Positions 1 through 56,738 of a stretch of DNA of 62,048 bases are shown here, one piece after another; positions within the stretch are counted from its first letter, which is position 1, and each line of letters opens with the position of its first letter. The stretch lies in the NCBI GenBank assembly GCA_947487955.1, contig CANKYV010000006.1, forward strand, positions 1-62,048, given 5' to 3'. Below the pieces are notes generated by a model that saw only the letters and a program-made list of their open reading frames with translations, had not been told where the DNA came from and did not search any database. Position numbers and translations under genes: made by a program. The DNA comes from Alphaproteobacteria bacterium (GTDB taxonomy: Bacteria; Pseudomonadota; Alphaproteobacteria; Paracaedibacterales; CAITNM01).

Positions 1-145
1 TTAATGTTCAAAAAATTCGGGTGAAAGACGTGTGGCATTTAACTGCAAAACTATCTCGTAAAATTCTTGCTCACACTGCTGCTTTCTTTATCAAAAAGTC
101 TTTGCAGTTCGATCTAATCTTCTCTTAAAAACTCGCACACTGCGT
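1..145 (+). mobile_element. 3' end of an IS982-family insertion sequence (transposase C-terminus 3..128 plus right inverted repeat)
   Basis: Frame 3 reads NVQKIRVKDVWHLTAKLSRKILAHTAAFFIKKSLQFDLIFS*, resembling IS982-family C-termini (R-x-R-D-L-W-H-L...R-K-I-L-A-H-T). It is followed by AAACTCGCACACTGCGT, an IS982-like end. Confidence 0.7.
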
Positions 146-266
146 TTTATAACTTAATTTTATTGATATTTATTTTATCTTGCAACGATAGATGATGTTA
201 ATAATTTTCTTAAGGAGCACCAACAATATTGACCCACATATAGATTTAAGGCATATTTCTGGAGTT

Positions 267-343
267 GGGCCTGTAGTTCAGTTGGTTAGAACCCCCCGCT
301 CATAACGGGGATGTCACAGGTTCGAGTCCTGTCGGGCCCACCA
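267..343 (+). tRNA. tRNA with CAT anticodon, most likely tRNA-Ile2 (lysidine-modified)
   Basis: GGGCCTG/CGGGCCC acceptor stem, CCCCG-CTCATAA-CGGGG anticodon arm, GGTTCGAGTCC T-arm and encoded CCA. The GGGCC acceptor is typical of Ile2 rather than Met. Confidence 0.92.
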
Positions 344-344
344 T

Positions 345-1307
345 TTATTTTAATCCCTCAATAAATGTATTAACATACGCATTCATAAGCGCTTCATACG
401 CACCCTCTCCCGCTTGAATATCAGCCCCTAGATAATCAACAACAGCAAAAGAAATTTTTAAGGTGTCCGCATAGCTTTTTACAAGCGCTGTACCCATTTG
501 TCGTTCTGCATACAAACATCTAGGGTGAATAACTCCTTTTTGTATTGCTTTGCGGATTTTTAGTATGTGACCCGCACTTGGTGGCACACTTGGATCAATT
601 GAAATTGTAGCAACTGTTTTAACATCATACGCCGCATCAAAATATTGATTGCCATCGTGTTGAATAATATACGATTTACCTTTGTAAGGAGCCATTTTCC
701 ACAATAATTGCTGGTGAAGAACTTGCAAACGTGTCTTATAATCACTTGCATTTTTATTCAATAGATCATGATGGTTTGGATATAATTGCTTAAAACGTTC
801 TAAGACTACATCAACTACTTGCAGCATAATCAAGGGATTTAGCCAAATATGTCCGTCTAAATTCGCTTCTTGGTGGCTGTGATTTTCATGAGAATGTTCA
901 TGTTCATCGTGATGACAACAAGCATGTTCATCCCAAAACCTACCACTTCTAAGTGGTTTTAGCTTAATTAAAGGGCTATTTTGTATACTTAAAACGTTGC
1001 TTTTCAGTGCTTTTATATGTTTGCTAAGCAGTTGCTCGTAAATAGGGCCAATCCAAACAACAACTTTAGCACCTTTCAGTGCTTGCACTTGTGAAGGTTG
1101 AAGCTGAGCATGATGAGGAGAAACATATCCATCTAACAATAATACAGGAGTAGTAATACCTTTGGTAAGCGCACAAACTAAGCTATGCAATGGTTTTATT
1201 GAAACAACAATCTCACTGTGTGTAGTTTTTGCTGAGAACAAACTGAAATACAAAATAGCAAAGACAGCAATCATAGCAGTTGCTACAGATATTATTTTTT
1301 TGAACAC
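345..1307 (-). CDS. znuA: Zinc ABC transporter substrate-binding protein
   Basis: VVSIKPLHSL, SPHHAQLQPS, His-rich loop, DGHIWLNP and HDGNQYF motifs, plus an N-terminal hydrophobic segment. Confidence 0.9.
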   Translation of the reverse strand: MFKKIISVATAMIAVFAILYFSLFSAKTTHSEIVVSIKPLHSLVCALTKGITTPVLLLDGYVSPHHAQLQPSQVQALKGAKVVVWIGPIYEQLLSKHIKALKSNVLSIQNSPLIKLKPLRSGRFWDEHACCHHDEHEHSHENHSHQEANLDGHIWLNPLIMLQVVDVVLERFKQLYPNHHDLLNKNASDYKTRLQVLHQQLLWKMAPYKGKSYIIQHDGNQYFDAAYDVKTVATISIDPSVPPSAGHILKIRKAIQKGVIHPRCLYAERQMGTALVKSYADTLKISFAVVDYLGADIQAGEGAYEALMNAYVNTFIEGLK

Positions 1308-1752
1308 GAATATTCTTCCAAATTATAATTTAGGGGATACTAGCACACCTAGCGTTTGAAACAACTGATGTAAGCCTTGCCAAAACCAATCTCTAATTTG
1401 TCCACAAGAGCCATCTTTTTCAAGCATTGCCTCAAGAGCCTTATAACCTTTGGCCTTTATCAAGAATATTTTCACGTAGCAGATTATACTGTTAGTTGCG
1501 ATAAGAAAAAACTATTTTTTAGCCAGTAAAATATTGAGTTTTATTTAGGCCTGCCCACTTAAAAATTTGACAAGCCAAAGAAATAAGAGTATTCTGTCAG
1601 AGTATTTTTAATATAAGCGTTTGTGGAAATGACTTTTCTTTGTTCAAGAAATTCCATATCAGGCAAAATCTCTATTTTGTCAAACGCTTGGCGTTGGCAT
1701 AGCTAAATCTCCATTTTTTTCAAAAAATTAGATTAACTCGACACTGTTCTCA

Positions 1753-2793
1753 GTGTCTCAGATCATGAGAAATGCTATGACATCGCAACATTTTTGTAAA
1801 TTATTTATATCATTGCTTTTACTATGCATCCCCGCACATACGGAAAGTGAATCTTTCGCACAAGCTAAAGCTATATTTGAAATATTAAAACCTAATATTT
1901 TAGATTTTGACATTGATGCAATCTTAGATAATCAACAACCAGTTGAAATTTTATCCATATCCGAAAATAGCAAATACAAGCTAATTAAAAAGCTTGAAAA
2001 TATTATTAATCAAGGACTTTTTATAGACTTTCTTTGTCCTGCATTTCCATTTAAATCAGGGAACCACGATCAAAATACGATTTCAAGTAACGTTGACATG
2101 ACAGAATATCATAGTCTTAAGCACCTAAACCAAATGATTGAGGCCATTAAAACAATATATCCAAAAGTACATTTTACGATTGTAACTGATGGACTATTAT
2201 TTGCTGACTTATTCCATATTCCTGATGAAATTGTTTTAGCTTACGAGCGTGACTTAAAAAGACTCACCAAATTATTACCTCACATAACAATTAAACCAAT
2301 TTTTCAACTACTGTCACATGCAAACCAATCTCTTCAAACAATCAGAGAAGAGATTGGATGTATTGAAAAAACACAATTGATACCCCCCCCTAAAAATAAG
2401 AAACGCTTTGAAATTTTAAAAGCACGCATTCTTCAAGAAATTAATCATTCAAATCACCCTTACTTTCATATGCAAGCTTTTGATCGAGTAATTTATCTGG
2501 AAAAAATTGCTCAAGCAGTTATCGCTAGAGATGAGTTTGTTAAACAATTTATGAAACAATTTGAAACAGCTAATACCATTCGTTTGTCTACCCATTATCA
2601 AAAAGATATAAGTGAAAAAATTGGAATTAGGTTTTCAAATGATTCTTACGTAACACCATGGAATGGTGTTTTTGTACGAAAAGCAGATGGCACAGTTTCT
2701 ATTTTACGAAAACGTGAGATTGATACACATAGATTCAAGCTAGAGCACGAACTTCACAACAACGTAGAGTGCGCTTTCTATAATTGGCGCTAA
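1753..2793 (+). CDS. Dit1/PvcA-family isocyanide synthase-like protein with a signal-peptide-like N-terminus (likely start ATG 1777)
   Basis: FLCPAFPFKSGN, IVTDGLLFAD, IRLSTH and TPWNGV match Dit1/PvcA/IsnA family motifs. Confidence 0.8.
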   Translation: MSQIMRNAMTSQHFCKLFISLLLLCIPAHTESESFAQAKAIFEILKPNILDFDIDAILDNQQPVEILSISENSKYKLIKKLENIINQGLFIDFLCPAFPFKSGNHDQNTISSNVDMTEYHSLKHLNQMIEAIKTIYPKVHFTIVTDGLLFADLFHIPDEIVLAYERDLKRLTKLLPHITIKPIFQLLSHANQSLQTIREEIGCIEKTQLIPPPKNKKRFEILKARILQEINHSNHPYFHMQAFDRVIYLEKIAQAVIARDEFVKQFMKQFETANTIRLSTHYQKDISEKIGIRFSNDSYVTPWNGVFVRKADGTVSILRKREIDTHRFKLEHELHNNVECAFYNWR

Positions 2794-2883
2794 GCGCCTG
2801 ATATTTCTTAATTTTCCCATAACTAATACTCAACTTTTGTTGAGCATACAAAATGTATACTTAAATTTCACAAGGAGAAAAAA

Positions 2884-3928
2884 ATGTTAAAAAAAATATA
2901 CAGCATTATAGCAATAGCATTATACAGCTTTAGCGTTTTAAATGCCATCGATACGACCAGCGAAGATGTTGCAAAAATCATTAAAACATATCGAAAAAGT
3001 CTTCCAAGCATTACAAAAAAAATGCCCGAAAATATTACTCCTGAACAATGTATCATTAGATTTTTAAAACGCTTTCATCCGACCCCTAATACGCTAGAAG
3101 GAGATGAAGTGCTTGCGTTAAATATTAGCAGCATTTTAGCGCAAGGAAATGGGCTAACATTTCTTTTACCAGCTAATCCTTGCAAATCACGTAATACAGA
3201 AAGAAAAGTTCTAGGACTAAATCCTGATTTGGGCGAAGTTTTGGAAATTATTACCCTGAAATATATATGTGATAGCATAGCAGAGCTTTGTCATCAGCCT
3301 GTGAAGTGTGTATTGGTTTCTGATGGCGTAGCTTTTGGAGATATTTTAAGGATTTCTGAAGATGAAGTGCATGATTACGTAAGAAAAGTCAGACACTTAA
3401 TACGTGCTCAAGATGCTGATAATGTAGTTACATTAATGATGTTAGGAGATTTTCCCTGGCACTCCGTTTTTTGAGAAATCATTCAGTGAGATACAAGCAG
3501 GGCTTGATAGCATTGAATGCAAAAAACCCACAGGCATATTAGAACGCTTCGTAAGTGATGAATTTCACTGTAGTTATTATCAAGACATCAAAAAATCTGA
3601 TATCCCCCTTATTGCAAGATCTATTGAAAAAAGAGGAACACAGTTTGGAGTTTACCTAAGAAATTACGTTTTCCAAGAACACATGGTTAGACTTTCAATG
3701 AACATGCATCACACACAAATTTGCGAAGCCCTCCCTATACGATTGGTTTATGGAACAAGTGGCTCTCCATGGCACCATGCTCTAATTGTAGATTCCAAAA
3801 AAAATGTAAAGTTCTCATACAGAGAAAATGAAGAATCTAGTGAACTACGTTCAGGAAAATATAAAGGAATCGATATACAATGGATGAAATATTTAGCAAC
3901 ATCCAGCAGTTATAGTGGATGGAATTAA
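2884..3928 (+). pseudogene. Second Dit1/PvcA-family gene, split by a frameshift at about 3446-3472
   Basis: 2884..3474 has LLPANPCKSRN...KVLGLNPDLGE and VSDGVAFGD. The +1 frame is open 3446..3928 and has VRLSMNMH and SPWHHALIV. Rejoined length is about 347 aa, like the neighbour. Confidence 0.75.
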
Positions 3929-4058: not shown

Positions 4059-4508
4059 ATGCGACACAATTTTTTAGAAACAATCACGGGCGCTATAGTC
4101 TTGCTTGTAGCAGGAATTTTTTTTGCATTTGGATATCAATTCTCAACTTCTACTCATAAAGAAACATTTAGAATTTTTGCGCGTTTTGACAGAGTAGACG
4201 GGGTATCTATTGGTAATGATGTACGCATAGGTGGAGTTATTGTTGGTCATATTAATCACATATCAATTGATAAAAAGAACTTTAAAGCTATTGTAGCAAT
4301 GGATATTGACGCATCTTTAAAACTTCCAAAAGATAGCTCTGCTGAAATCAGCAGCGAAAGTTTAATGGGTGGAAAATACGTTAACCTATCTCCAGGTGGA
4401 GATGACGCATTTTTAAAGCAGGGAGATACTATTTCTTTAACTCAATCATCCGTCAGTCTTGAAAGCTTGCTTAGTAAGTACATTTTCAGCGATAAAGATA
4501 AGAAATAA
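4059..4508 (+). CDS. mlaD: Outer-membrane lipid asymmetry protein MlaD (MCE domain)
   Basis: N-terminal TM, then ARFDRVDGV...DVRIGGV.VG and SESLMGGKYVNLSPGG. Confidence 0.9.
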   Translation: MRHNFLETITGAIVLLVAGIFFAFGYQFSTSTHKETFRIFARFDRVDGVSIGNDVRIGGVIVGHINHISIDKKNFKAIVAMDIDASLKLPKDSSAEISSESLMGGKYVNLSPGGDDAFLKQGDTISLTQSSVSLESLLSKYIFSDKDKK

Positions 4509-4564
4509 GCATATATTGATAGGCTTTGCGATTTAAGCTGAGTCGTTGTAGGGGAAAAGTATTC

Positions 4565-6346
4565 ATGACCACAGTGCAACTGCGCTTGAAAGACGCTTGC
4601 GTTCGCTTTAGCGGTACTCCTGTTTTTGAAAAGTTAACAGCACAAATTTGTGACGGTGATCGCATTTGTTTGGTTGGCCGCAATGGTTGCGGAAAATCAA
4701 CCTTGCTCAAAGCACTTGCAAAAATCTATGAACTTGACGAAGGTGAGTACTTTTTATTATCTAGTCAAAATTTGGTGTATCTTGAACAAGATAAAACCTA
4801 CCCATTAGATGTAACAACCGCTGAATTATTAGAATCCTATGGTGCAAAGCCCCATGAAGCCAGATCAATTCTTGATAAATTAGGGATTGCTGCCAATATC
4901 ACATTAAATAGTGCATCTGGTGGGCAAAGGCGGCGATTTGCGCTAGCTGAGAGTTTAGTAAGAAACCCCACAATCCTTTTACTTGATGAGCCAACCAACC
5001 ATCTTGATTTACCCAGCATTCAATGGCTAGAAGAATACCTTTCCAAGTTCAAAGGCGCAGTAGTCATGATCAGCCATGATCGACGTTTTTTGGAAAAAGC
5101 TTCAAACATGACTTGGTGGCTTGATCGTGGCATATTACACGTGAATAAAAAGGGCTTCAAAGATTTTGATGATTGGTCAGCAATGCTGATAGAAGAGGAA
5201 GAAAGACGTCTGGAAAAACTTAATACGCGCTTACGCCTGGAAACAGATTGGTTGCATTATGGAGTTACCGCGAGACGAAAACGCAATCAAGGACGATTGC
5301 AACGCCTACATGAACTGCGGAGTGAACGCCGTGATATGATGCAAAATAAGACCCGCTCTATTGATGTGAATCCTGTTAACTTGCCACGAGGCAGCAAAAT
5401 TATTATTGAAGCTAAGGACATTCAAAAGTCATATGGTGAAAAAACAGTTGTGCAGCCTTTTTCCTGTCGTATTTTGCATCAGGACAAAATTGGCATTATT
5501 GGTCCAAATGGTGCTGGCAAAAGTACATTAGTAAAAATGTTGGTAGGTGAACTATCACCCGATTCTGGCCATGTGAAGCACGGCACAACATTGAAAGTTA
5601 CTTACATTGATCAGATGCGGTCAGAGCTTAATCCAACCGATACATTATGGCAAACTTTATGCCCAGAAGGCGGTGATCAAGTATGGGTTGGCAACGAAAC
5701 CAAGCACGTGGTTGGATACTTAAAAGAATTTTTATTTAATGAAGACCAAATTCGTGGGCAGGTAAGTATTTTATCGGGCGGTGAAAAAAATCGCCTACTT
5801 CTTGCAAAAGCGCTGGCAAATCCAGGAAATTTACTTGTATTAGATGAGCCTACCAATGATTTGGACATGGATACATTGGATTTGCTGGTAGAATGTTTGC
5901 AACAGTACAATGGTACGTTGATTGTAGTAAGCCATGATCGTGATTTCTTGGATCGCACAGTAACCTCCACCTATGTTACGTCAGATTCAGGTGAGATACA
6001 GGAATACGTAGGCGGATACAGTGATATTGAACATTACTTAAAAGCTGCTCAAAAATCTGTTAGTAAAGTTAAACAAAAAGAAGTGCTGCCTGAGAAAAAT
6101 TCTGCACCTAAGCGCCTGTCATACAATCTTAAGCGTGAGTGGGATGATCTGCCAAAAAAGATAAAAACACTGGAAGTACGCATTGGTGATCTATCTGCCC
6201 TTTTAGAAGATGTGACGTTGTATGAAAAAAATCCGCATCAATTCAAAACTTTAAGCGAAGAATTGCAGCAATGCCAAGAAGCATTAGATTCAGCTGAAAC
6301 CCGCTGGCTTGAATTGGAAATGATGGCTGAAGAATTAAAGGGTTAA
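4565..6346 (+). CDS. uup: ABC-F family ATPase, Uup-like
   Basis: Two ABC domains (GRNGCGKS, GPNGAGKS; LDEPTN twice), GVTARRKRNQGR linker and C-terminal coiled coil. Confidence 0.88.
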   Translation: MTTVQLRLKDACVRFSGTPVFEKLTAQICDGDRICLVGRNGCGKSTLLKALAKIYELDEGEYFLLSSQNLVYLEQDKTYPLDVTTAELLESYGAKPHEARSILDKLGIAANITLNSASGGQRRRFALAESLVRNPTILLLDEPTNHLDLPSIQWLEEYLSKFKGAVVMISHDRRFLEKASNMTWWLDRGILHVNKKGFKDFDDWSAMLIEEEERRLEKLNTRLRLETDWLHYGVTARRKRNQGRLQRLHELRSERRDMMQNKTRSIDVNPVNLPRGSKIIIEAKDIQKSYGEKTVVQPFSCRILHQDKIGIIGPNGAGKSTLVKMLVGELSPDSGHVKHGTTLKVTYIDQMRSELNPTDTLWQTLCPEGGDQVWVGNETKHVVGYLKEFLFNEDQIRGQVSILSGGEKNRLLLAKALANPGNLLVLDEPTNDLDMDTLDLLVECLQQYNGTLIVVSHDRDFLDRTVTSTYVTSDSGEIQEYVGGYSDIEHYLKAAQKSVSKVKQKEVLPEKNSAPKRLSYNLKREWDDLPKKIKTLEVRIGDLSALLEDVTLYEKNPHQFKTLSEELQQCQEALDSAETRWLELEMMAEELKG

Positions 6347-6535
6347 AAATTCAAGCAGAATTGATTATTTTAAGCTTGCATTTTTGGCCTTCATATCTAC
6401 ATATAGTGTATAATTTAAAATATTAGAGAATACATATTTAAGGTATGGTCTTTTTTTATTTTAGAAATTTTAACGCCTGGGCAAGGCACTTAACATAAGC
6501 ATTAAGATGCAACCTTATTTAATTATTAAAAGCTA

Positions 6536-7189
6536 ATGTTTGAAGATATTTTAGATCATTCTTTTAAAAGAAAAACCTTGCTAGCACAGGCACTTACTCC
6601 GCCAGTTTTGCAACAACGAAAACAAGGGAAAGCTTTTGAACGTTTAGAATTTTTAGGAGATCGAATTCTGGGGTTAGTTATTGCCGAAGCCTTGTACTCG
6701 CATTACACCCATGATGAAGAAGGTAAGCTTGCTAAACGGCTTTCATATCTAACGTCACGAGAGTTTTGTCATATCGTTGCAGAGCGTATTAACCTGGCAC
6801 AATTTTTACCCATTTCGGCAGATGAATTAAAAGGCACATCAATTCTTGCAAATTGCATAGAAGCAATTATTGCGGCTTTATACATTGATGGCAGAATGGA
6901 AGCGGCACAAAGTTTTATTCACAAATATTGGAAAAATGAAATTTATGCGTTGGAGGAATTGCCCAAAGATCCTAAAACTCTTGTACAAGAATGGGCCCAA
7001 AAGCGTGGCATGGATATTCCTGAATACATAGAAATTGAGCGTTCTGGCCCAGATCATGCTCCTACATACACTCTTAAAATTTCTTTAACAAATGGCCTAA
7101 CGGCCGTTGGTGAAGGTAAAAATAAGAAACTCGCAGAACGTAATGCAGCACAAAGACTTTGGAGTATTATTGATTCTGAGATAAAGTGA
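6536..7189 (+). CDS. rnc: Ribonuclease III
   Basis: ERLEFLGDRILG signature and C-terminal dsRBD (DPKTLVQEWAQ...GPDHAP). Confidence 0.95.
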   Translation: MFEDILDHSFKRKTLLAQALTPPVLQQRKQGKAFERLEFLGDRILGLVIAEALYSHYTHDEEGKLAKRLSYLTSREFCHIVAERINLAQFLPISADELKGTSILANCIEAIIAALYIDGRMEAAQSFIHKYWKNEIYALEELPKDPKTLVQEWAQKRGMDIPEYIEIERSGPDHAPTYTLKISLTNGLTAVGEGKNKKLAERNAAQRLWSIIDSEIK

Positions 7190-7376
7190 CTAATAATGTT
7201 ATGAAATTTTTTTATTAGCACAAAAAATTAGCTATTGAGCCACCTATTTTATTAGCACTCAATGTTATCCACAAAAAAAGCCACTTTGGTTAACTATTTC
7301 TTGACTTTTGAGACGCATAGTTGAAGTATAGGGTGACGAATTTTGTTGCTGCTAATAAGTTTAATGTGGAGAAAAT

Positions 7377-8642
7377 ATGAGCAAATCTTCTGGTGATAGT
7401 AAAAATACTTTGTATTGCTCTTTTTGTGGAAAAAGTCAGCATGAAGTCCGTAAATTAATTGCAGGACCAACTGTATTCATCTGTGATGAATGCGTTGATC
7501 TTTGTACTGATATCATTCAAGAAGAAAATGCAGTTCCTCGTTTATTAACTGAAGGTGTCCCATCTCCTTTAGAAATTCGTAAGGTTCTTGATGATTATGT
7601 AATTGGACAAGAACATGCAAAAAAAGTTCTCTCAGTTGCTGTACACAATCACTATAAGCGTCTCAACCATAGTGGCCATAATGCCGGAGATGTTGAAATT
7701 GCTAAATCAAACATTATGCTGGTAGGACCTACCGGTAGTGGTAAAACCTTATTAGCACAAACTTTGGCACGTATTATTGATGTTCCTTTTACCATGGCAG
7801 ATGCAACCACACTAACTGAGGCAGGTTATGTAGGCGAAGACGTAGAAAATATTATTCTAAAGCTTCTACAGGCTGCTGATTATAATGTTGAACGAGCACA
7901 ACGCGGTATTGTTTATATCGATGAAGTTGATAAGATTTCCAGAAAATCTGATAATCCTTCAATCACGCGCGATGTTTCTGGTGAAGGAGTACAACAGGCG
8001 CTACTAAAAATTATGGAAGGAACGGTTGCTTCTGTCCCTCCTCAAGGTGGACGCAAGCATCCTCAGCAAGAATTTTTGCAAGTCGATACTACCAATATTT
8101 TATTCATTTGCGGAGGCGCCTTTGCAGGACTAGAAAAAATTATTGCTGGTCGTAAAAAGGGTAGTGGAATAGGATTTGGAGTAGATGTAAAAGGCCCGCA
8201 GGATCATAAAGTGGGCGAACTCTTACGTGATCTTGAACCAGAAGATTTGCTAAAATTTGGTCTCATCCCAGAATTTATTGGCCGTCTCCCAGTAGTTGCA
8301 ACATTGGGCGATTTAGATGAAGCAGCATTAGTTGAAATTTTATCTACACCTAAAAATGCGTTACTAAAACAATATGCACGTTTATTTGAAATGGAAGATG
8401 TAAAACTAACCTTTGAAAATGAAGCTCTTCATTCAGTCGCTCAAAAAGCCATTTTGCGAAAAACTGGCGCCAGAGGACTACGCTCAATTATGGAAAGTAT
8501 TTTACTTGATCCGATGTATGAGTTACCCTCAAGAGAAGATGTGGAAGAAGTTATCATTAATAAAAAAGTAGTGGAAGACAAGGGTGAACCCGTAGTTGTT
8601 CTAAAACAAGAAGAACCAAAACGTAAAGAGAGTGCACGTTAA
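7377..8642 (+). CDS. clpX: Clp protease ATP-binding subunit ClpX
   Basis: CSFCGK...CDEC zinc finger, [15 protein letters not shown] and IGF loop. Confidence 0.97.
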
Positions 8643-11074
8643 TGGCTAAGAAAAGCGAATTGCTTTCAATTACTCAAGGAGATCTATTTCCAGTATTGCC
8701 TTTGCGCGATATCGTAGTTTTCCCTCATATGATTGTGCCGCTTTTTGTAGGGCGTGATAAGTCAGTGTTGGCATTAGAAGAAATGATGGTTTCCAACAAA
8801 AAAGAACTTATATTAGTTACGCAAAAAAATCCTTCAGATGACAATCCAGAAGCTAAAGACCTATACTCGGTTGGAACACTTGGCACTTTGTTACAACTTT
8901 TAAAGCTTCCCGATGGCACTGTTAAAGTACTAGTTGAAGGCACTCAGCGTGTACGCCTAAACCAATTTGTTGATGACTCTCCTTTTTTCCAAGCTTATGG
9001 ATCAGTTATTACTGAAGAAGATGGTTCCGAAGAAGAATTAGAAGCACTCATACGTGCTGTGGTTTCACAGTTTGAGCAATACGTTAAACTTAATAGAAAA
9101 ATTCCACCTGAAGTTCTGGTAACTGTTAACCAAATTGCAGATCCAGCAAAACTTGCAGACACAGTTGCTTCTTATTTTAGCTTAAAAATTCCTGACAAGC
9201 AGATCTTACTTGAGACGGCCAATATTAGTAAGCGTTTAGAAAAAGTTCTTGGTTATATTGAAAGTGAAAGTGCTGTTTTACACGTAGAGAAGAAAATTCG
9301 TACTCGCGTTAAAAAGCAAATGGAAAAAACGCAACGTGAATATTACCTTAACGAACAGCTAAAAGCGATCAATCGCGAATTAGGTGAAGGTGAAGAAAGT
9401 AAAGATGAAATTGCTGAGTTAGAAGAAAAAATTAAGAAAGTAAAACTTAGTAAAGAAGCTAAAGAAAAAGCTCTTGCGGAAGTTCGTAAGTTAAAAACCA
9501 TGAATTCTTCGTCTGCAGAGTCCACAGTATTACGCAATTACTTAGATTGGCTTTTAAATTTACCTTGGAAACAGCGTAGTCGCACCAAGAATAATCTAAC
9601 CACAGCGGAAAATATTTTAAACAAAGATCATTATGGTCTTGATAAAGTTAAAGAACGTATCTTAGAGTACCTTGCTGTACAAGCACGAGTTGGAAAAGTT
9701 CGCGGTCAAATTTTGTGCCTAGTAGGCCCTCCAGGTGTAGGAAAAACCAGTCTCGGGAAATCACTAGCTAAAGCTACGGGTAGAAATTTTGTTCGTATCT
9801 CTTTAGGAGGTGTACGCGACGAATCTGAAATTCGAGGACATAGACGTACATATATTGGGTCTATGCCTGGAAAAATTATTCAAGGAATGAAAAAAGCAAA
9901 AGCATCAAATCCTTTATTCCTTCTAGATGAGATTGATAAACTTGGAAGTGACTGGCGAGGAGATCCTGCATCTGCATTGCTGGAAGTGCTAGATCCTGAA
10001 CAAAATTCTACGTTTAATGATCATTACCTGGAGGTTGATTATGACCTTTCTGACGTAATGTTTATTACAACAGCAAATACGCTAAAAATGCCTCAACCAT
10101 TGCTTGATCGTATGGAAATTATTCGTATTCCAGGTTACACAGAGGATGAAAAATTAGTTATAGCTAAACAGCACTTAATTCCAAAGCAGATGGAACAGCA
10201 TGGCTTAAAAGCAACTGAATTTTCGGTCAATGATGAAGCAATATTAACGCTTATTCGCAATTATACTCGTGAAGCAGGTGTACGCAGTCTTGAGCGCGAA
10301 GTTACTAATCTTTGCCGCAAAGTTGTCCGCGAAATTATGAGTGCAAAAGTTAAAAAAATTAAAATTAATAAAGAGAATTTAGGAAAATACGCCGGTATAA
10401 AACGCTTCAGATATGGACTAGCAGAGGAAAAAGATACTATTGGTGTTACAACAGGACTTGCTTGGACAGAATCTGGCGGTGAGTTATTAAGTATTGAAGC
10501 AGTTGTATTACCTGGAAAAGGCAAAACGCTAATTACCGGTAAACTAGGCGATGTAATGCAAGAATCTGTTCAAGCAGCGCTTAGCTACGTTCGTGCACGT
10601 TCAACGCAGTTTGGATTAAAACCAAGCTTGTTTGAACGTAAAGACATACATATTCATGTGCCAGAAGGAGCTATTCCTAAGGATGGTCCATCTGCAGGTA
10701 TTACAATGTGCACTTCAATTGTTTCCGTACTAACGGGCATTCCTGTATCAAAAGATGTTGCGATGACTGGTGAAGTTACATTGCGTGGTAATGTACTACC
10801 TATAGGCGGCTTAAAAGAAAAGCTACTTGCTGCTCACCGTGGAGGCGTTAAGACTGTAATTATTCCTTATGATAATGAAAAAGATCTTGCTGAAATCCCA
10901 GATAACGTCACAAAGGGCTTAACGATTATCCCCGTTAAGCACGTAGATGAAGTGTTACGACTAGCACTCTCTAGTGAGCTACAACCAATTGAATATTCAG
11001 AAGATGAAGAGGGAAATGAAAAAAGATCTGGCCTGACTGATAAAGAAACTTTAGCAAGTCAAACAGTACAGTGA
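8642..11074 (+). CDS. lon: Lon protease
   Basis: LON N-domain, [17 protein letters not shown] and GGLKEKLL. Confidence 0.97.
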
Positions 11075-50753: not shown

Positions 50754-52024
50754 GCCTGTTTAAAACAAAATCGCAGAGTATACCCTCAGAAACTTTTGCT
50801 GCTCTTGATATTGGCTCAAGCAAGGTCTGCTGTGCTATTGCAAAAATGAACCGCGATATCATTCCTGAAAAAGGAGTTACTGTTAAAATTTTGGGGGTAG
50901 CTTCTCATGCAGCAAAAGGCATTCGCGGCGCTTCTATTATTAACTTAGAAGAACTTGAAGACTCAATCTTAAATGGTATTCATTCAGCAGAACAACTTGC
51001 AAAGCAAACTATTCATAACGTATACGTTAATCTTCCAGCAGAAGCACTACAATCACATTTTATTACCACAAAAATCTCTCTTTATGGACAACCAGTAAAA
51101 GAATCACACCTTCAAAAAGCTTTAGATGTCAGCAGAGATCAAAGCATTGGCATTGCTAGGAAAATTATTCATATTTTTCCAATTTCATACGATATAGATG
51201 ACAGTACTAATATTCAAGATCCAAAAGGAATGCTAGGCGACACTCTCACAACAAGGCTACATGTAATAACATCTCCATCTAACCTTATTGCAAATCTAAG
51301 CACGTGCCTTGGAAGATGCCACTTAGACGTGAATGCTTTTGTAGCAGGCCCTTATGCTGCTGCACTTGCTTGCCTGACTGAAGATGAAAAAGAAATGGGT
51401 GTGACGTTACTTGATATTGGTAGTCACAGTATTTCCATAATGAGTTTTTATAATGGCAATCCTATCTATCTGGGGTGCTTACCTATGGGCGGAAACCATA
51501 TTACTCATGATATTGCACAAGGGTTAAACACAAATCTTAGCCAAGCTGAGCGCCTTAAAACTTTATACGGCAGCTTATTTGGCGCAATTGATGATCGAGA
51601 GACAATTTTAGTGACTCAACTTGGAGATGATAATACAACTTTTGCTAATCCTGTCTCTAAAAGCTTTTTAATGCATATCATTAAAGCAAGAGCCGAAGAA
51701 ATTATTGAAGCGATTGAGCGAATGCTTACTTCACAGCCTATTGATCCAATAGCACTGCAGCGATTTGTAATTACTGGAGGATCTAGCCAATTGCAAGGCT
51801 TTCGCGATGTTATGCAGTCTCACCTTAATAAAATTGTACGTGTGGCAACACCTCAAGGATTACAAGGAATTGGTGATGTTATTCATACTCCAGCATTTTC
51901 ATTATGTGCAGGGCTTTTACAATATGCACTGCGTGATCATCAAGGATTACAAATAAACAATGCCTTAGGAAAACAAAAAAGTATTGTAATGCGAGCTTGG
52001 AACTGGGTTCGTAACCATGTATAG
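50750..52024 (+). CDS. ftsA: Cell division protein FtsA
   Basis: LDIGSSKV, GG.HITHDI, AERLK and TGGSSQL. Confidence 0.93.
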   Translation: MSLFKTKSQSIPSETFAALDIGSSKVCCAIAKMNRDIIPEKGVTVKILGVASHAAKGIRGASIINLEELEDSILNGIHSAEQLAKQTIHNVYVNLPAEALQSHFITTKISLYGQPVKESHLQKALDVSRDQSIGIARKIIHIFPISYDIDDSTNIQDPKGMLGDTLTTRLHVITSPSNLIANLSTCLGRCHLDVNAFVAGPYAAALACLTEDEKEMGVTLLDIGSHSISIMSFYNGNPIYLGCLPMGGNHITHDIAQGLNTNLSQAERLKTLYGSLFGAIDDRETILVTQLGDDNTTFANPVSKSFLMHIIKARAEEIIEAIERMLTSQPIDPIALQRFVITGGSSQLQGFRDVMQSHLNKIVRVATPQGLQGIGDVIHTPAFSLCAGLLQYALRDHQGLQINNALGKQKSIVMRAWNWVRNHV

Positions 52025-52029
52025 ATCAA

Positions 52030-52179
52030 ATGAACGATAAATCAAAAATTCAATTAGAAAAGCAAAAACGGCTTGAAAAAGCATTACGTGAAAATTTACG
52101 CAAACGCAAACTTCAGCAACGCGAAAGAGAAGATAAAAAGAGCCAAGACTCAGAACAAAAGAAGCCAGAAGAAGCGTAA
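52030..52179 (+). CDS. Small basic protein (49 aa), not in the ORF track
   Basis: MNDKSKIQLEKQKRLEKALRENLRKRKLQQR...; the RL..ALRENL..RK.Q motif resembles a small alphaproteobacterial hypothetical protein. Confidence 0.65.
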   Translation: MNDKSKIQLEKQKRLEKALRENLRKRKLQQREREDKKSQDSEQKKPEEA

Positions 52180-52181
52180 AT

Positions 52182-52883
52182 TTATTGACTCATCATTGAG
52201 GTAAATTTTGAAACAGCATGTTCAGTCGTTTGCGCATTTAATTTTTTGCGGATGTTAGCTAAATGAAAGGCTGCAGTAGATCCAGAAATATTTAAGTTGT
52301 GACTTACTACTTTAATAGTTAATCCTTGCGCTTTTTGAGTAAGAAGTTCAATTTCACGGTCTGTTAAACACTCCAACGCTTGACTATCTTTTATAGTCGC
52401 TATCTTATTTGCACAAACGTTTGCCACTAAAGAAAGGGTATATAAAACTTCTGGGTGTAAAAATGCCTGATTCAGAACTGTTGTAAAACCGTGAAAAGTA
52501 GCATGAGGAATCAAAGGAATGGTAATTCCAGATTTTATACCAAAATCAAATGATTCTTCCATTAAAGTTTGCTGTATTGGCAAAAGATTATCAAAACCGT
52601 CAACGCTCCATTCAAATGGAACCGCTACTTTCTTTAGTGTACTGAACACAGGGTCACACAAATAATATCGTTCTTTTGTATAACGTTTTTCCCATTCTTT
52701 TGAGTACGTGTTGTGCACACAAAAAGATTCCGTAATTTTCTTCTTGCCTGAAAACACAGCAAGTGCAAACTGTTCAACATTAAAGTCATTACAAATGTTC
52801 TGAAAAATTTCAAAAACACCCTCATCAGACTGTGTAATGCTATTTATTTGCTCAATCGCAGCATTTATTCGCTTATTCAGCAT
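52182..52883 (-). CDS. luxR: LuxR-family AHL-responsive transcriptional regulator (full length)
   Basis: Autoinducer-binding residues W, Y, DP, W, G (YSKEWEKRY...DPV...PFEW...GIKSG) and C-terminal HTH (LTDREIELL...G...FHLANIRKKL). Confidence 0.93.
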   Translation of the reverse strand: MLNKRINAAIEQINSITQSDEGVFEIFQNICNDFNVEQFALAVFSGKKKITESFCVHNTYSKEWEKRYTKERYYLCDPVFSTLKKVAVPFEWSVDGFDNLLPIQQTLMEESFDFGIKSGITIPLIPHATFHGFTTVLNQAFLHPEVLYTLSLVANVCANKIATIKDSQALECLTDREIELLTQKAQGLTIKVVSHNLNISGSTAAFHLANIRKKLNAQTTEHAVSKFTSMMSQ

Positions 52884-52976
52884 TTTTAATCCTTTATCTT
52901 ACAACTAGTACTAATTTTAAAAAAACTACTATAAGAAAATATTGCTAAGCTTTTATCGCTCCATACAAAAAAAATG

Positions 52977-53534
52977 TCAATCAGGTCTTCTTGAAAAATT
53001 TCGTTTGTCTTGCAAGGATATAATTTTGTTTGAGCAAACATTACCCACCAGAGAAAGCGTATACAAAACATCATGGTGTAATGATGATTGATTGAGCACG
53101 GTCACAAAACCATGAAAAGTAGCATAAGGAATCAAAGGAATTGTAATGCCAGATTTTATACCAAAATCAAATGATTCTTCCATTAAGGTTTGTTGTGTTG
53201 GCAAGAGACCATCAAAACTTTTAGTATCCCATTCAAAAGGAACAGCAACTTTCCGCAATGAACTAAAAACAGGATCGCATAAATGATATTGTTTCTCTTT
53301 ATAATGCTGTATCCACTCTTTTGAGTAAGTATTGTATATAGAAAATGATTCTGTGATATCTTTTCTACCTGAAAAGATTGCTAATGCAAATTTTTCAAAA
53401 TTTAAATCTAGGCAAATACCTTTAAACACAGCAAACACATCTTCTTCAAAATATTTCACAGCATCTATTCTCTCTAATGCGCTTTTTATTTTCTTATCAG
53501 CTAGCAGTTTTGTACCAGAGATCATTTCACTCAC
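52977..53534 (-). CDS. LuxR paralog with autoinducer-binding domain only (no HTH)
   Basis: Highly similar to the neighbouring luxR (38-bp identical block at 52528 and 53149) but stops just before the HTH. Confidence 0.85.
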   Translation of the reverse strand: MSEMISGTKLLADKKIKSALERIDAVKYFEEDVFAVFKGICLDLNFEKFALAIFSGRKDITESFSIYNTYSKEWIQHYKEKQYHLCDPVFSSLRKVAVPFEWDTKSFDGLLPTQQTLMEESFDFGIKSGITIPLIPYATFHGFVTVLNQSSLHHDVLYTLSLVGNVCSNKIISLQDKRNFSRRPD

Positions 53535-53592
53535 CTCTCACATAAGTACATTATGATTATCGGTAATCTAAAACGATTTTTAGGTTTTCTAA

Positions 53593-53612
53593 ACCTGTTA
53601 GATTATACAGGT
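53593..53612. promoter_or_regulatory. lux box
   Basis: ACCTGT-TAGATTAT-ACAGGT has the same arms as the Vibrio fischeri lux box (ACCTGT-N8-ACAGGT); 59 bp upstream of the truncated luxR start. Confidence 0.85.
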
Positions 53613-53666
53613 AAAATGTTTTTAATTTGATGCTAACAAGAGTTGCACCAGTTTTTTCTAACATCA

Positions 53667-53798
53667 TATAGCCAGACTCATATAAATTGAGCACATAAAT
53701 TTAGATTGCTCGCAAAGACGTTAAATACTTAATTTTTGTCTTCGCGAGGAGCATAAGCGACGTGGCGATCTTATAATTAAATTGTAGTTCTGGCTATA
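53667..53798. mobile_element. MITE-like element with 10-bp terminal inverted repeats enclosing REP/RPE-like sequence
   Basis: TATAGCCAGA...TCTGGCTATA ends; internal GTCTTCGCGAGGAGC..GCGACGTGGCGATCT and AGATTGCTCGCAAAGAC. Confidence 0.55.
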
Positions 53799-53815
53799 CT
53801 CTAGGCTTCTAAATC

Positions 53816-53917
53816 ATCATCTTGAGCCCTTAAGAAGGCGTGAAAATCCAGTAAGTAATTTCAATGTTGAAATAATAAAACTGGACCCTCACGAGAGCTA
53901 TGCTCCCTCAGGGTGAC
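53816..53917. repeat. Nested imperfect palindrome (REP/REPIN-like)
   Basis: ATCATCTTGAG/CTCAGGGTGAC outer arms and GTGAAAATCCAGT/ACTGGACCCTCAC inner arms. Confidence 0.55.
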
Positions 53918-54081
53918 GAGTTTCTAAGCAACTTTATTCCGGACAGCAGTGCAGACACGCCAGTGACAAACTCTGCCGAGGATTTTAGGCAGAGCACGTA
54001 AATCTATTCAAAAATATTTATTGGAAAGGGATCAAGAAACAAATGCAAACTCATTCCCCGTATTTTTTTTATAAGCAAGTC

Positions 54082-54267
54082 TTACTGAAGCTCTTCCTTA
54101 AAAAGCTCATCCATCATTTTACTTTGAGCATCTAAAATTCTTATTTCTTTCAAAACTATTTCTGTTTTTTGAAGTTCGTTTATATTCATTTTCTTCATCC
54201 CCTTACTCTGCTGACTATCTTCAGTTTTTTGCTGACTATTTTCGATATTTTGCACTGCATCCACCAT
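54082..54267 (-). CDS. Small hypothetical protein (61 aa)
   Basis: Strong RBS (AAAAGGAGA) upstream; internal SQQ duplication. Confidence 0.6.
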   Translation of the reverse strand: MVDAVQNIENSQQKTEDSQQSKGMKKMNINELQKTEIVLKEIRILDAQSKMMDELFKEELQ

Positions 54268-54360
54268 GGACTTTTTTCTCCTTTTGATTCCAATAACCTA
54301 TTGATATCAAGTATTTTTATAATTTTTATCCAATAAAAAATTGTTATTTATACTTATACT

Positions 54361-54885
54361 CTAATTCGAATAAGATAGGAAATAATTTTTTTGTCTTACA
54401 AATTGCAAAAATTCTACCCCCAGTTTAGTTAAACAAATTTTTCCAGCTTGTACTTGAATAAAATTTGAATTTTTTAAAAAATTAAGCCATGTAAAAAATG
54501 CTGGCATATTTTTATGAGCAGTTGAAACATTTTTTGCAAATATCTGGTAGATATCTTTCTCAGAAAAAGCAACTCCGTAATGAAATTCAAGGTATTCTAA
54601 TAATTTAATATGACTTCTAGAAACACGCTTATACGTATTTTCATAATAAGCCACTTTCTGCAATACGCATTCTTTATCTCCAGTCTTGCCATTTAGAGAA
54701 ACAGCCTTTAAATGCGGACTGACTAAATTTATCTTGTTAGCGTTGGCTTTTTTTTCATTGAACTGCACCTGCATTTTGCATACCAGAGGCCAAGCAATCT
54801 GCGTTATACAATAGAAGCAAGCTATAACAACACATCCACCTGCAATAAAACGTAGCAAGAAAATTTTCAAGGTTTTTGCCATCAT
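54361..54885 (-). CDS. Membrane-anchored protein with a possible C-terminal winged-helix
   Basis: N-terminal TM; C-terminal WLNFLKNSNFI...ICLTKLGVEFL; lux box upstream. Confidence 0.7.
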   Translation of the reverse strand: MMAKTLKIFLLRFIAGGCVVIACFYCITQIAWPLVCKMQVQFNEKKANANKINLVSPHLKAVSLNGKTGDKECVLQKVAYYENTYKRVSRSHIKLLEYLEFHYGVAFSEKDIYQIFAKNVSTAHKNMPAFFTWLNFLKNSNFIQVQAGKICLTKLGVEFLQFVRQKNYFLSYSN

Positions 54886-54942
54886 TCATCTCCGTTTCTA
54901 AAGTTCCGTGATGAGTTTTAGCTTGAATTGACTAATATTTAA

Positions 54943-54962
54943 ACCTGTTACTTTATACAGTT
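54943..54962. promoter_or_regulatory. lux box
   Basis: ACCTGT-TACTTTAT-ACAGTT; 58 bp upstream of the 54885 start. Confidence 0.8.
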
Positions 54963-54978
54963 ATTTCTAGAATTATAG

Positions 54979-55602
54979 CTAACCTTGACCTTGTAAAATA
55001 TAAACAGGTTCGTTGGCAGGAAGATTTATTTTATCTAATAGCTTAGAATATGACTCGGCTAGCGGTGAATATTCCGTTACGTGTATTTCTTCATTATTAA
55101 CAACGCTACGAGCTAAAAGTGATGTTGAAAAAAACTGGGAAAGAATCCTCGCTGGAGAGGGATAAGAAAGTGTCACAAAGCTTTTAATCTCTGCGTCTAA
55201 ACCAAACAAAACTGAAGCCGCTAATATTCTACAGCACACATTCTTTGCATCTTCTTTTGTATAACCTTCAGCAAAATCGTAGTCAACAGCCATACGACTC
55301 GCTTCCCAATGCTGCGCGTTCTTATAGTCTTTTAAATTTGATAATACAAAATCAAAAGGACCATCAAACATACAAGGGTTATTCATAGGAATATAACGCT
55401 GACACCCCCTAACAATGTTATTTTTGTCCTTAAAAATTAAATAATATGTATTATTTTCATCATACTCATCTTTTTCCATACCATCTTCACTGTTAACCTG
55501 CCACTTCAATTTTTCAAAAAATACCTTATGACGAAGCCTGTACATTGCATCTAGATCATCGCGGTGTGTAGAATACTCATTGGGTGTAATTAGATAAACC
55601 AT
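54979..55602 (-). CDS. luxI: Acyl-homoserine-lactone synthase
   Basis: YRLRHKVF..KLKW, EKDEYD, GCQRY.P and WEASR signatures. Confidence 0.95.
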   Translation of the reverse strand: MVYLITPNEYSTHRDDLDAMYRLRHKVFFEKLKWQVNSEDGMEKDEYDENNTYYLIFKDKNNIVRGCQRYIPMNNPCMFDGPFDFVLSNLKDYKNAQHWEASRMAVDYDFAEGYTKEDAKNVCCRILAASVLFGLDAEIKSFVTLSYPSPARILSQFFSTSLLARSVVNNEEIHVTEYSPLAESYSKLLDKINLPANEPVYILQGQG

Positions 55603-55658
55603 AAAAATACCTGTTATCGTTAGATGAGCTATATTTAGTGATAGTTATTTGTAATTTC

Positions 55659-55678
55659 AACTGTTTAAATAAATAGGA
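55659..55678. promoter_or_regulatory. Degenerate lux box upstream of luxI
   Basis: AACTGT-TTAAATAA-ATAGGA; 57 bp upstream of the luxI ATG, matching the spacing of the other two boxes. Confidence 0.55.
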
Positions 55679-55842
55679 AAAAACAAAATAAACATTTTTT
55701 ACACTATAAAATATATAAAATTGAACTAAATAATTTTAAAAAAAATATAATAAAATAAATTACGAAAATATTAACACTAAAGATATAAGAATTTTTTTAC
55801 TTTTTTAGAAAATCTATATAATCAACTAAAAAATTTTTAACT

Positions 55843-55862
55843 ACCTGTATAATTATACAGTT
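55843..55862. promoter_or_regulatory. lux box (distal)
   Basis: ACCTGT-ATAATTAT-ACAGTT, with a perfect 16-bp palindromic core CTGTATAATTATACAG. Confidence 0.78.
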
Positions 55863-55925
55863 CAGATCTGCTTATGGGGTATAATTAAACAGAAGGCTAA
55901 AAACTTAAGATGCATTCTTAAAATT

Positions 55926-56738
55926 TTAGCGCCAGTGGCGGCCGTGCCAACCTTCTCTACGCCCCCAGCCTCCTCCAAGCCAAATGCCAGGACCACCCCA
56001 ATAAGGATAACCATAATAAGGCGCACGATGTTCTTCTATAATAATCGGTTGAACAGGTTGCACAGGAGGACCATAGGCTGGAGGAACTTGTTTAACGCTT
56101 GCTGCTGGTGTTGCTACGGAAGCTGATTTCTCATGTTTCGCTGCGTGATGGATATTTTTTGCCCGATCAATCACACCTTGTAAAAATGCCCCAACCTCAC
56201 TGGTTGGATCTTTGATAGTTATATCAACAGTAATCTTTATTGATTTACCTTTTTCTTTATCACCTGGCCAACGATAGGTGTACTCAAAAGCATGACCATT
56301 CCAATGACCCTTCTCTAATAATAGCCTTTCACCACTTTTAAAATATCCCATTTCTGTTTCGTCATTTTTAGACTTTTCTCTAGCGTCGCTTTCCCCATCA
56401 ATCTCATTTGCCCAACACAATGCAATGTGTTTTTCATCTTCATGCCGTTCTTCAGGTGTTAAGCGAATTTTTATCGAAGTCCAAGGACCATCAAATGTTA
56501 ATTCTTCATTTTTTACAAGCTGAATAATTTCATCTTTGCCTAATTCATATCCTGGACATAATGCCCAAGTGATAATTTTTTCATCAGATAAAGTTCTTAA
56601 TTTTTCAAGGTCATAACTTTCTACTTTTTTGACGGCTTCTGCATGTGCTGACTCATTTTGCATGGGATCTCCGCCAGCAAAAGCAAACACACAAAAGCAA
56701 GTAAATAGAAATAAATTAAGAATTTTCATATTAAACAA
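55926..56738 (-). CDS. Secreted hypothetical protein with Pro/Gly/Trp/Arg-rich tail
   Basis: Signal peptide ending AFA; C-terminal PYYGYPYWGGPGIWLGGGWGRR. Confidence 0.7.
   Translation of the reverse strand: MFNMKILNLFLFTCFCVFAFAGGDPMQNESAHAEAVKKVESYDLEKLRTLSDEKIITWALCPGYELGKDEIIQLVKNEELTFDGPWTSIKIRLTPEERHEDEKHIALCWANEIDGESDAREKSKNDETEMGYFKSGERLLLEKGHWNGHAFEYTYRWPGDKEKGKSIKITVDITIKDPTSEVGAFLQGVIDRAKNIHHAAKHEKSASVATPAASVKQVPPAYGPPVQPVQPIIIEEHRAPYYGYPYWGGPGIWLGGGWGRREGWHGRHWR

Follow-up and report, generated by a model that had tools for sequence, protein, structure and literature searches.

Quorum sensing is commonly regarded as belonging to bacteria that have large genomes and live freely or associate with hosts only facultatively, and regulatory circuits are among the first losses when genomes shrink. 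What, then, is an acyl-homoserine lactone (AHL) locus doing in the reduced genome of an alphaproteobacterium that appears to depend on a host? The locus spans positions 52182-55862 of the window, a stretch of 62,048 nucleotides that is the whole of contig CANKYV010000006.1, and contains five open reading frames (ORFs; 52182-55602), all on the minus strand. We consider it likely that these genes form a working, self-regulating LuxI/LuxR quorum-sensing cassette in a genome-reduced, energy-parasitic Holosporales/Paracaedibacterales-like alphaproteobacterium. In window coordinates, the genes of the cassette are:

54979-55602, minus strand: luxI, AHL synthase homologue, 207 aa; Pfam PF00765 (Autoind_synth) E 4.4e-28.
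54361-54885, minus strand: X, orphan protein, 174 aa; predicted N-terminal long helix, disordered linker and C-terminal winged-helix-like domain.
54082-54267, minus strand: orf60, small conserved ORF, 61 aa; conserved C-terminal helix motif.
52977-53534, minus strand: luxR', receptor copy, 185 aa; PF03472 (Autoind_bind) E 4.2e-21, without a GerE match.
52182-52883, minus strand: luxR, full receptor/transcription factor homologue, 233 aa; PF03472 E 1.1e-19 and PF00196 (GerE helix-turn-helix) E 3.8e-11.

The ORF calls and Pfam matches bear out the first-pass annotation of this DNA, which had placed a luxI, a full luxR and a luxR copy lacking the helix-turn-helix (HTH) on one strand. The two genes that it had left as unknown, X and orf60, are real ORFs conserved in three species. 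Syntenic loci, for which it had proposed a search, occur in two congeners with the same cassette at the same site, locus L008 (LuxI 79% identical) and locus L009 (72%). In both, the order is tmk, a small zinc-ribbon gene, mem142, luxI, X, orf60, luxR' and luxR, facing ftsA. The annotation had also raised the possibility of a chimeric locus, which is unlikely given that the same flanking genes surround the cassette in two other species.

LuxI scores 98.5 bits against a PF00765 cut-off of 24 and is the only PF00765 match in the genome (G000). The NCBIfam TraI models match it below their equivalog cut-offs (78 versus 250-292 bits). HMMER aligned LuxI to the TofI, LasI and EsaI structures, with R24, F28, W34, E43, D45, D48, R69, E100, S102 and R103 in blocks identical to TofI or LasI; we take these ten positions to be the canonical N-terminal catalytic and S-adenosylmethionine (SAM)-site residues of LuxI-type synthases. 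Genes for MetK and for FabF-type and FabZ-type enzymes are present in G000, so the substrates of LuxI can be made. As to the product, the threonine of the SFVTLS motif (T144) had been equated with EsaI T140 and a 3-oxo-AHL proposed. Against LasI, T144 stands opposite T142 and S146 opposite T144; LasI T142, T144 and T145 are tabulated as active-site residues in the available part of a review (PMC9654057). The HMMER alignment to EsaI ends at query residue 108, short of the motif. A hydroxyl residue occupies either candidate position, and a 3-oxo-AHL would be a possible product if the proposed alignment with EsaI T140 is correct.

In a quick-method tree of 53 LuxI sequences, the query fell inside a clade of 16 (SH-aLRT 100) on a stem of 2.31 substitutions per column. 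All 16 members come from the order or from metagenome-assembled genomes (MAGs) labelled Holosporales, Alphaproteobacteria, Pseudomonadota or Proteobacteria, and in the same tree the LuxIs of two other families in the order group with other alphaproteobacteria. The named LuxI relatives are from a 'Holosporales bacterium' (47-50% identity) and a 'Candidatus Paracaedibacteraceae bacterium' (42%), and the relatives all come from metagenomes. Elsewhere in the order, tandem luxI pairs lie a few hundred bases apart in four genomes (G016, G031, G056 and G058), and G016 has four PF00765 matches.

LuxR aligns over its full length to RhlR (residues 12-223) and to QscR. Columns W64, Y68, D77, P78, W92 and G119 are invariant across 10 full and truncated receptors from the three species, and presumably correspond to the TraR pocket residues W57, Y61, D70, P71, W85 and G113. 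L008 holds one truncated copy and L009 two in tandem; together with that in the window, all four LuxR' copies break off at one and the same point of the linker, with the whole pocket retained. Only 93 nt separate luxR' from luxR, and there is therefore no HTH remnant after luxR'. An HTH-less copy also adjoins a full receptor and a clade-A luxI in G025, which belongs to another family of the order. By analogy, the most likely role of LuxR' is damping, through a heterodimer or through signal capture. According to the accessible portions of the respective papers, TrlR of Agrobacterium blocks TraR via inactive heterodimers (PMC3907764), and CerN of Cereibacter sphaeroides, with AHL, binds CerM and stops it from binding DNA (PMC11655674). 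Placed behind the same box as luxR, LuxR' would give delayed negative feedback.

Autoind_bind matches number six in G000, two in the cassette and four elsewhere, and 11 in the related genome G005. Those outside the cassette in G000 are full-length paralogs on contigs C24, C2 and C15 and a fragment on C43; across the order, such receptors occur in 29 of 62 genomes. Five cassette-free congeners (G001, G002, G004, G006 and G011) each have one weak Autoind_bind match (E ~1e-6 to 1e-7) in a frame of 158-176 aa, and the C43 fragment (C43:916-1116, a 122-aa frame) resembles these proteins, which may represent a distinct and only distantly related protein with a ligand-binding domain, shared across the genus.

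LuxR-type receptors bind an 18-20-bp inverted repeat centred near -42.5 of their target promoters. Candidate sites of this kind in the cassette, scored with a weight matrix built from sites in the genome, and the putative luxI promoter are:

55843-55862, unstranded: distal luxI box ACCTGTATAATTATACAGTT, 31.0 bits; equivalents in L008 (1510, 1541) and L009 (7737).
55659-55678, unstranded: proximal degenerate luxI box, 13.3 bits; overlaps the proposed -35, with the luxI ATG 57 nt downstream.
54943-54962, unstranded: luxI-X intergenic box, 20.1 bits; same position in L008 (2433) and L009 (8624).
53593-53612, unstranded: box upstream of luxR'-luxR, 26.3 bits; same position in L008 (4719) and L009 (9510).
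55632-55660, minus strand: putative sigma-70-like luxI promoter, TTGAAA (55660-55655), 17 nt, TAAATA (55637-55632); conserved in three species.

Four lux-box palindromes had been reported: three are strong 20-bp palindromes and the fourth, at 13.3 bits, is degenerate. The pattern CTGT-N8-ACAG has three matches in the 62-kb window (53595, 54945 and 55845), all within the locus; shuffling the window gave a mean of 0.6 matches, and three were reached in one of 100 shuffles. Three box positions are conserved across the three carrier species. The last two bases of the proximal box are the first two of the TTGAAA hexamer, and a block AGTTGAA...CTATCACTA.ATATAGC shows no or almost no variation among the luxI upstream regions of the three species. 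We read TTGAAA-17 nt-TAAATA as a probable luxI promoter, with the box centred near -43.5. An A/T-rich hexamer 21-22 nt after each strong box could serve as a -10. With the sole LuxI of the genome, receptors and boxes all present, the description of the circuit as complete and self-contained holds.

The cassette appears to be maintained by selection. Pairwise dN/dS values among the three species, which are qualitative only because dS is saturated (above 1), were as follows for the cassette and two flanking genes:

luxI: 0.07-0.12.
X: 0.11-0.28.
orf60: 0.26 (only pair calculable).
luxR': 0.15-0.19.
luxR: 0.05-0.09.
ftsA (flank): 0.06-0.07.
tmk (flank): 0.03-0.08.

All five cassette genes are, on these estimates, under purifying selection. 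The three carriers (G000, G005 and G010) form a clade both in an FtsA tree (12 genomes; 100/100) and in a Lon tree (15 genomes, with the sister genus as root; 99/99), and in the latter they are nested among non-carriers. Six cassette-free congeners show an empty site, with ftsA-orf49 running directly into mem142; a further genome, G013, has a 270-aa gene between orf49 and mem142, and in three other congeners neither the cassette nor the flanking genes could be recognised downstream of orf49 in the part of the locus examined. The simplest history would be a single gain in the common ancestor of the carriers, after genome reduction. All 15 genomes examined in the bacterial family encode the TLC ATP/ADP translocase, which places the gain after the shift to energy parasitism. 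As the LuxI clade is confined to the order and similarly labelled MAGs, the donor was probably another member of the order. The first-pass annotation had expected complete AHL circuits to be exceptional in such genomes, an expectation that is not borne out: LuxI occurs in 19 of the 61 genomes searched in the order and in 57 of 301 sampled across the class, the latter tally including one unpublished genome.

That the genome is of a reduced, host-dependent type, as had been surmised from the window, agrees with its content. The bin has 1,548,166 bases (1.55 Mb) in 48 contigs with 37.4% GC and is 98.39% complete and 0.02% contaminated; genome sizes in the genus are 1.1-1.7 Mb. The TLC translocase of G000 (E 3.2e-170) and its family-wide occurrence compare with 0 of 14 well-known free-living control genomes. 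The type VI secretion system (T6SS) sheath protein TssC is present, as are eukaryote-like proteins with leucine-rich repeats and a Ulp1 domain (LRR-Ulp1), Sel1-like repeats or a RING-like domain; a VirB4-type type IV secretion system was not found in the 98%-complete bin. Placement by ClpX, as had been proposed, recovered relatives at 88-99% identity, with labels (Pseudomonadota or Alphaproteobacteria MAGs) too generic for fine placement; other relatives are labelled Holosporales or Paracaedibacteraceae. All characterised Holosporales are obligately host-associated, according to the available part of a 2025 review (PMC11909080). Judged from genome content, host dependence of the organism is well supported.

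Neither X nor orf60 matched a Pfam or NCBIfam family at E<=0.01, and only 12 relatives of X were found at E<=1e-3 among 1.84 billion representatives. In 62 genomes of the order, X occurs in four: the three luxI carriers of the genus and one with a distant C-terminal hit. Its AF2 model (pLDDT 83) consists of a long N-terminal membrane-type helix, a disordered linker and a C-terminal domain with pLDDT above 90. The top Foldseek hits of this domain in the PDB were winged-HTH regulators, mainly of MarR, ArsR and Fur type, at weak E values (~1e-2), and an Atlas search agreed. orf60 lies at the same position in L008 and L009, and the alignment of the three sequences has 10 invariant columns. Within the luxI promoter, a block at 55625-55650, CTATCACTAnATATAGC, is invariant in the three species and overlaps the spacer and proposed -10. 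It could be an operator for a second regulator, and X might, as a guess, bind it.

Boxes are also found outside the cassette. The weight matrix identified 10 sites of at least 16 bits in the 1.55-Mb genome; across three mononucleotide shuffles, 2, 3 and 7 hits reached a threshold of 14 bits. The pattern CTGTATAANNNNNCAG has 13 matches (10 sites) in G000, 5 in G005 and 6 in G010, compared with 1 in the non-carrier G003 and 0 in the non-carrier G013; reversed-pattern controls gave 0-1. In G000, a box precedes each of two DksA/TraR-type zinc-finger paralogs (C35 and C31) by 57-58 nt, the luxR paralog on C24 by 63 nt, and a DUF2795 gene by 51 nt; this last gene is followed by a phospholipase D (PLD)-like protein with two HKD motifs. 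Boxes also occur at larger distances from a PEBP gene and the LRR-Ulp1 gene. In the carrier G005, the closest DksA orthologue has a box as well. None was seen in 23 DksA-paralog loci from 11 cassette-free congeners, nor in four further DksA-paralog loci from the three carriers. The extra boxes of G005 and G010 precede other genes. These encode a PTP-like phosphatase and class-I methyltransferases; G010 adds a large protein without a known family, in three copies. Such a species-varying output would lean towards regulators and likely secreted proteins.

G000 has four DksA/TraR-type zinc-finger genes (C35, C31, C20 and C18), and each of 14 genomes of the genus has 2-5. On C24 (L033), two very large proteins are encoded at 1-3222 and 6382-9792; they share a central region with the motifs CFKQNPE.PG and ILxDNERS, one carrying Sel1-like repeats and the other LRRs and a Ulp1/C48 protease domain (Pfam E 1.4e-07). 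Both look like eukaryote-directed effectors. On C31 (L034), a 125-aa protein (4256-4633, minus strand) has weak RING/MIZ-type zinc-finger matches, the best at E 1.1e-05 and below cut-offs. Its gene lies 107 nt beyond a minus-strand ORF (L034 4533-4772) that faces the boxed DksA paralog.

The sequence data show gene content, conservation, selection, motif enrichment, synteny and phylogeny. For the circuit that follows, the chemistry of the signal, its receptor's binding to DNA, antagonism by LuxR', the output of the regulon and life inside cells are inferred. LuxI would make an AHL-type signal from SAM and an acyl carrier, and full-length LuxR would bind it. LuxR would in turn bind the 20-bp palindrome ACCTGTATAAnnATACAGGT, over or beside the -35 of its target promoters. 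With luxI itself, X-orf60 and luxR'-luxR as targets, the circuit would feed back on itself. LuxR', induced from LuxR's box, would most likely act as a damper: it could pair with LuxR or its paralogs in heterodimers blind to DNA, or could sequester the signal, as for TrlR and CerN. The outside boxes would drive a small regulon of two DksA/TraR-type regulators, the luxR paralog and the DUF2795-phospholipase D pair. The signal would thereby switch global transcription, and probably host-directed functions, once bacteria or confinement suffice. The circuit may, as had been suggested, count cells within a host and trigger exit or effector release, with indirect support from the boxes upstream of the two DksA-type regulators and the DUF2795-PLD pair.

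Several points weigh against this account. The cassette is known from DNA alone, and the genome is a metagenome bin in which a 16S search gave no match. The LuxI clade sits on a long stem, Pfam covers residues 11-154 of the protein only, and the product may differ from a standard AHL. At ~240 nt from the ATG, the distal luxI box is remote by the measure of classical lux promoters, and the proximal box is weak. A consensus promoter scanner missed the proposed luxI promoter and found fewer promoter-like sites than in shuffles. Saturation of dS blunts the estimates of selection. Regulon content differs among the three carriers, and the box at C24:20050 stands ~280-350 nt from the PEBP gene and has no clear target. 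Two other candidate sites were rejected, C3:74488 as lying inside a surA-like gene and C1:68980 as having no assignable target.

Considering these points, what else could the locus be doing? The circuit might sense confinement (or diffusion) and not numbers: one or a few bacteria in a host vacuole would accumulate their own signal and so register that they are enclosed, or that they have got out. With positive feedback on luxI and luxR (boxes 55843, 55659 and 53593), few cells would be enough to throw the switch where the volume is small; the genome has features of an intracellular life; and a PLD-type protein encoded downstream of a box would suit an exit through the membrane of a compartment, a process in which phospholipases D can serve. 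A dedicated damper such as LuxR', however, would argue for a raised threshold and fits counting better; the two modes would look alike in sequence, and the organism may live in a vacuole, in cytosol or outside cells. On balance we regard confinement sensing as unlikely, if the most serious of the alternatives. We find it distinctly improbable that the organism is not strictly intracellular, being epibiotic or having a long extracellular stage, and uses the cassette to sense density in the ordinary way, within biofilms or on the surface of a host. Its relatives are all metagenome bins with no recorded host, MetK and fatty-acid synthesis are kept, and LuxI is as common or commoner in the order (19/61) than in the class sample (57/301). 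Set against this are the distribution of the translocase (15/15 family genomes, 0/14 free-living controls), the small genomes of the genus, the eukaryote-like LRR-Ulp1, Sel1 and RING-like proteins, and the obligate host association of characterised Holosporales as given in the available text of PMC11909080.

It is more doubtful still, to the point of being very improbable, that the cassette plays no role here, as a passenger brought in by recent transfer or as an artefact of assembly or binning. The cassette was gained as a block, six congeners have the empty site, and the DNA holds a short repeat also found on contig C4. Its GC content (0.31-0.34) is the lowest in the window, although two other window regions are equally low. 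Yet the same site and gene order recur in three species whose synonymous sites are saturated, all five genes show purifying selection, LuxR paralogs and boxes occur on other contigs (six Autoind_bind matches in G000, 11 in G005), and boxes stand upstream of housekeeping-type regulators. The reading of a self-regulating LuxI/LuxR cassette at work in a reduced, host-dependent bacterium is the one that we retain.

The core of this cassette is textbook and the truncated receptor has precedents; the setting and the accessory genes are new. LuxI/LuxR of Vibrio fischeri likewise combine a PF00765 synthase with an Autoind_bind and GerE receptor, a 20-bp CTG-N10-CAG repeat near -35 and positive feedback on the synthase. 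Here, in contrast, LuxI belongs to an order-specific, long-stem clade, two boxes precede luxI, of which the strong one is ~240 nt away from the ATG, the synthase and receptor genes are separated by three more genes, and the genome is 1.55 Mb with an ATP/ADP translocase. TrlR of octopine-type Ti plasmids in Agrobacterium tumefaciens is also an HTH-less receptor copy encoded with its system (PMC3907764, accessible part). TrlR is opine-induced, whereas LuxR' is encoded on the chromosome by a gene that follows a lux-type box and immediately precedes luxR; three species conserve it, one of them has two copies, and it also occurs in a second family of the order. The CerN/CerM system shares an alphaproteobacterial HTH-less LuxR homologue, and the available portion of PMC11655674 describes six LuxR homologues and one synthase, as compared with six Autoind_bind matches and one LuxI in G000. 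CerM, in the same portion, is a repressor feeding into CtrA, whereas the cassette architecture here points to activation. C. sphaeroides is, moreover, a free-living phototroph with a large genome, and the likeness is one of architecture.

Small extra regulators of RsaL, RsaM and TraM type are a known theme in luxI/luxR loci, as far as the accessible parts of PMC3386692 and PMC10710839 go, and X, with its predicted DNA-binding-type fold, sits in such a locus. X and orf60 gave no Pfam or NCBIfam match to those families, the presence of whose models in the libraries was unchecked. X differs from them, too, in its N-terminal membrane-type helix and in having only 12 relatives. Among symbionts, Sodalis is recent in its association, has a large genome and is culturable. 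AHL quorum sensing through SogI/SogR has been described in S. glossinidius, a maternally transmitted intracellular symbiont of tsetse (PMC2568817, available part); unlike it, the lineage described here was already reduced and translocase-bearing when the cassette was gained. A literature search, which did not cover subscription journals or supplements, returned no account of AHL circuits in Holosporales-like or translocase-bearing reduced lineages or of the X/orf60 architecture. In the accessible text of the Holosporales review (PMC11909080), the terms quorum, LuxR, homoserine and autoinducer have 0 occurrences.

The surroundings of the cassette hold further features. Between mem142 and the cassette in G000 is a 270-aa ORF (55926-56738, minus strand) whose product has a hydrophobic stretch in its N-terminal part, a tail rich in Gly, Trp and Pro, and no Pfam match; a homologue with 51% identity occupies that site in the cassette-free G013, and the gene is absent from L008 and L009. 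Directly after ftsA lies orf49 (52030-52179, plus strand), a very basic, Lys/Arg/Glu-rich 49-aa ORF that tblastn also located after ftsA in 12 of 12 other genus loci examined. The spacer between orf60 and luxR' contains a repeat of ~130-150 bp (53667-53801), with two copies at 83-85% identity on contig C4 and shorter matches on C4 and C17, and it resembles a small MITE-type element. L008 has a GIY-YIG-type ORF and tandem repeats in this spacer instead. No Rfam match was obtained in 52000-56200 at E<=1.

What the locus means for the organism can be stated in parts. A translocase-bearing lineage gained a full cassette, kept its five genes, multiplied the receptor and spread the box to global regulators and likely host-directed genes. 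AHL genes seem widespread in the order (LuxI in 19/61 genomes, receptors in 29/62) and are unmentioned in the available part of the 2025 review of the group. The order-specific LuxI clade is as yet untapped. We tentatively entertain a more specific possibility, clearly less probable than not: that a reduced, obligately intracellular energy parasite gained an AHL circuit, expanded its receptors to 4-11 paralogs, and rewired them to DksA-type regulators and host-directed proteins (phospholipase D, PTP-like phosphatase, large secreted proteins), so that a self-made signal from the very divergent LuxI clade, perhaps a new acyl-homoserine lactone and possibly one read also by the host, times a developmental switch from replication to exit or transmission in a single host cell. 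More generally, intracellular bacteria may still sense their own numbers or confinement. If the circuit works inside host cells, it would provide a tractable model for how such bacteria measure their own load or enclosure, with closely related carrier and non-carrier species as natural controls.

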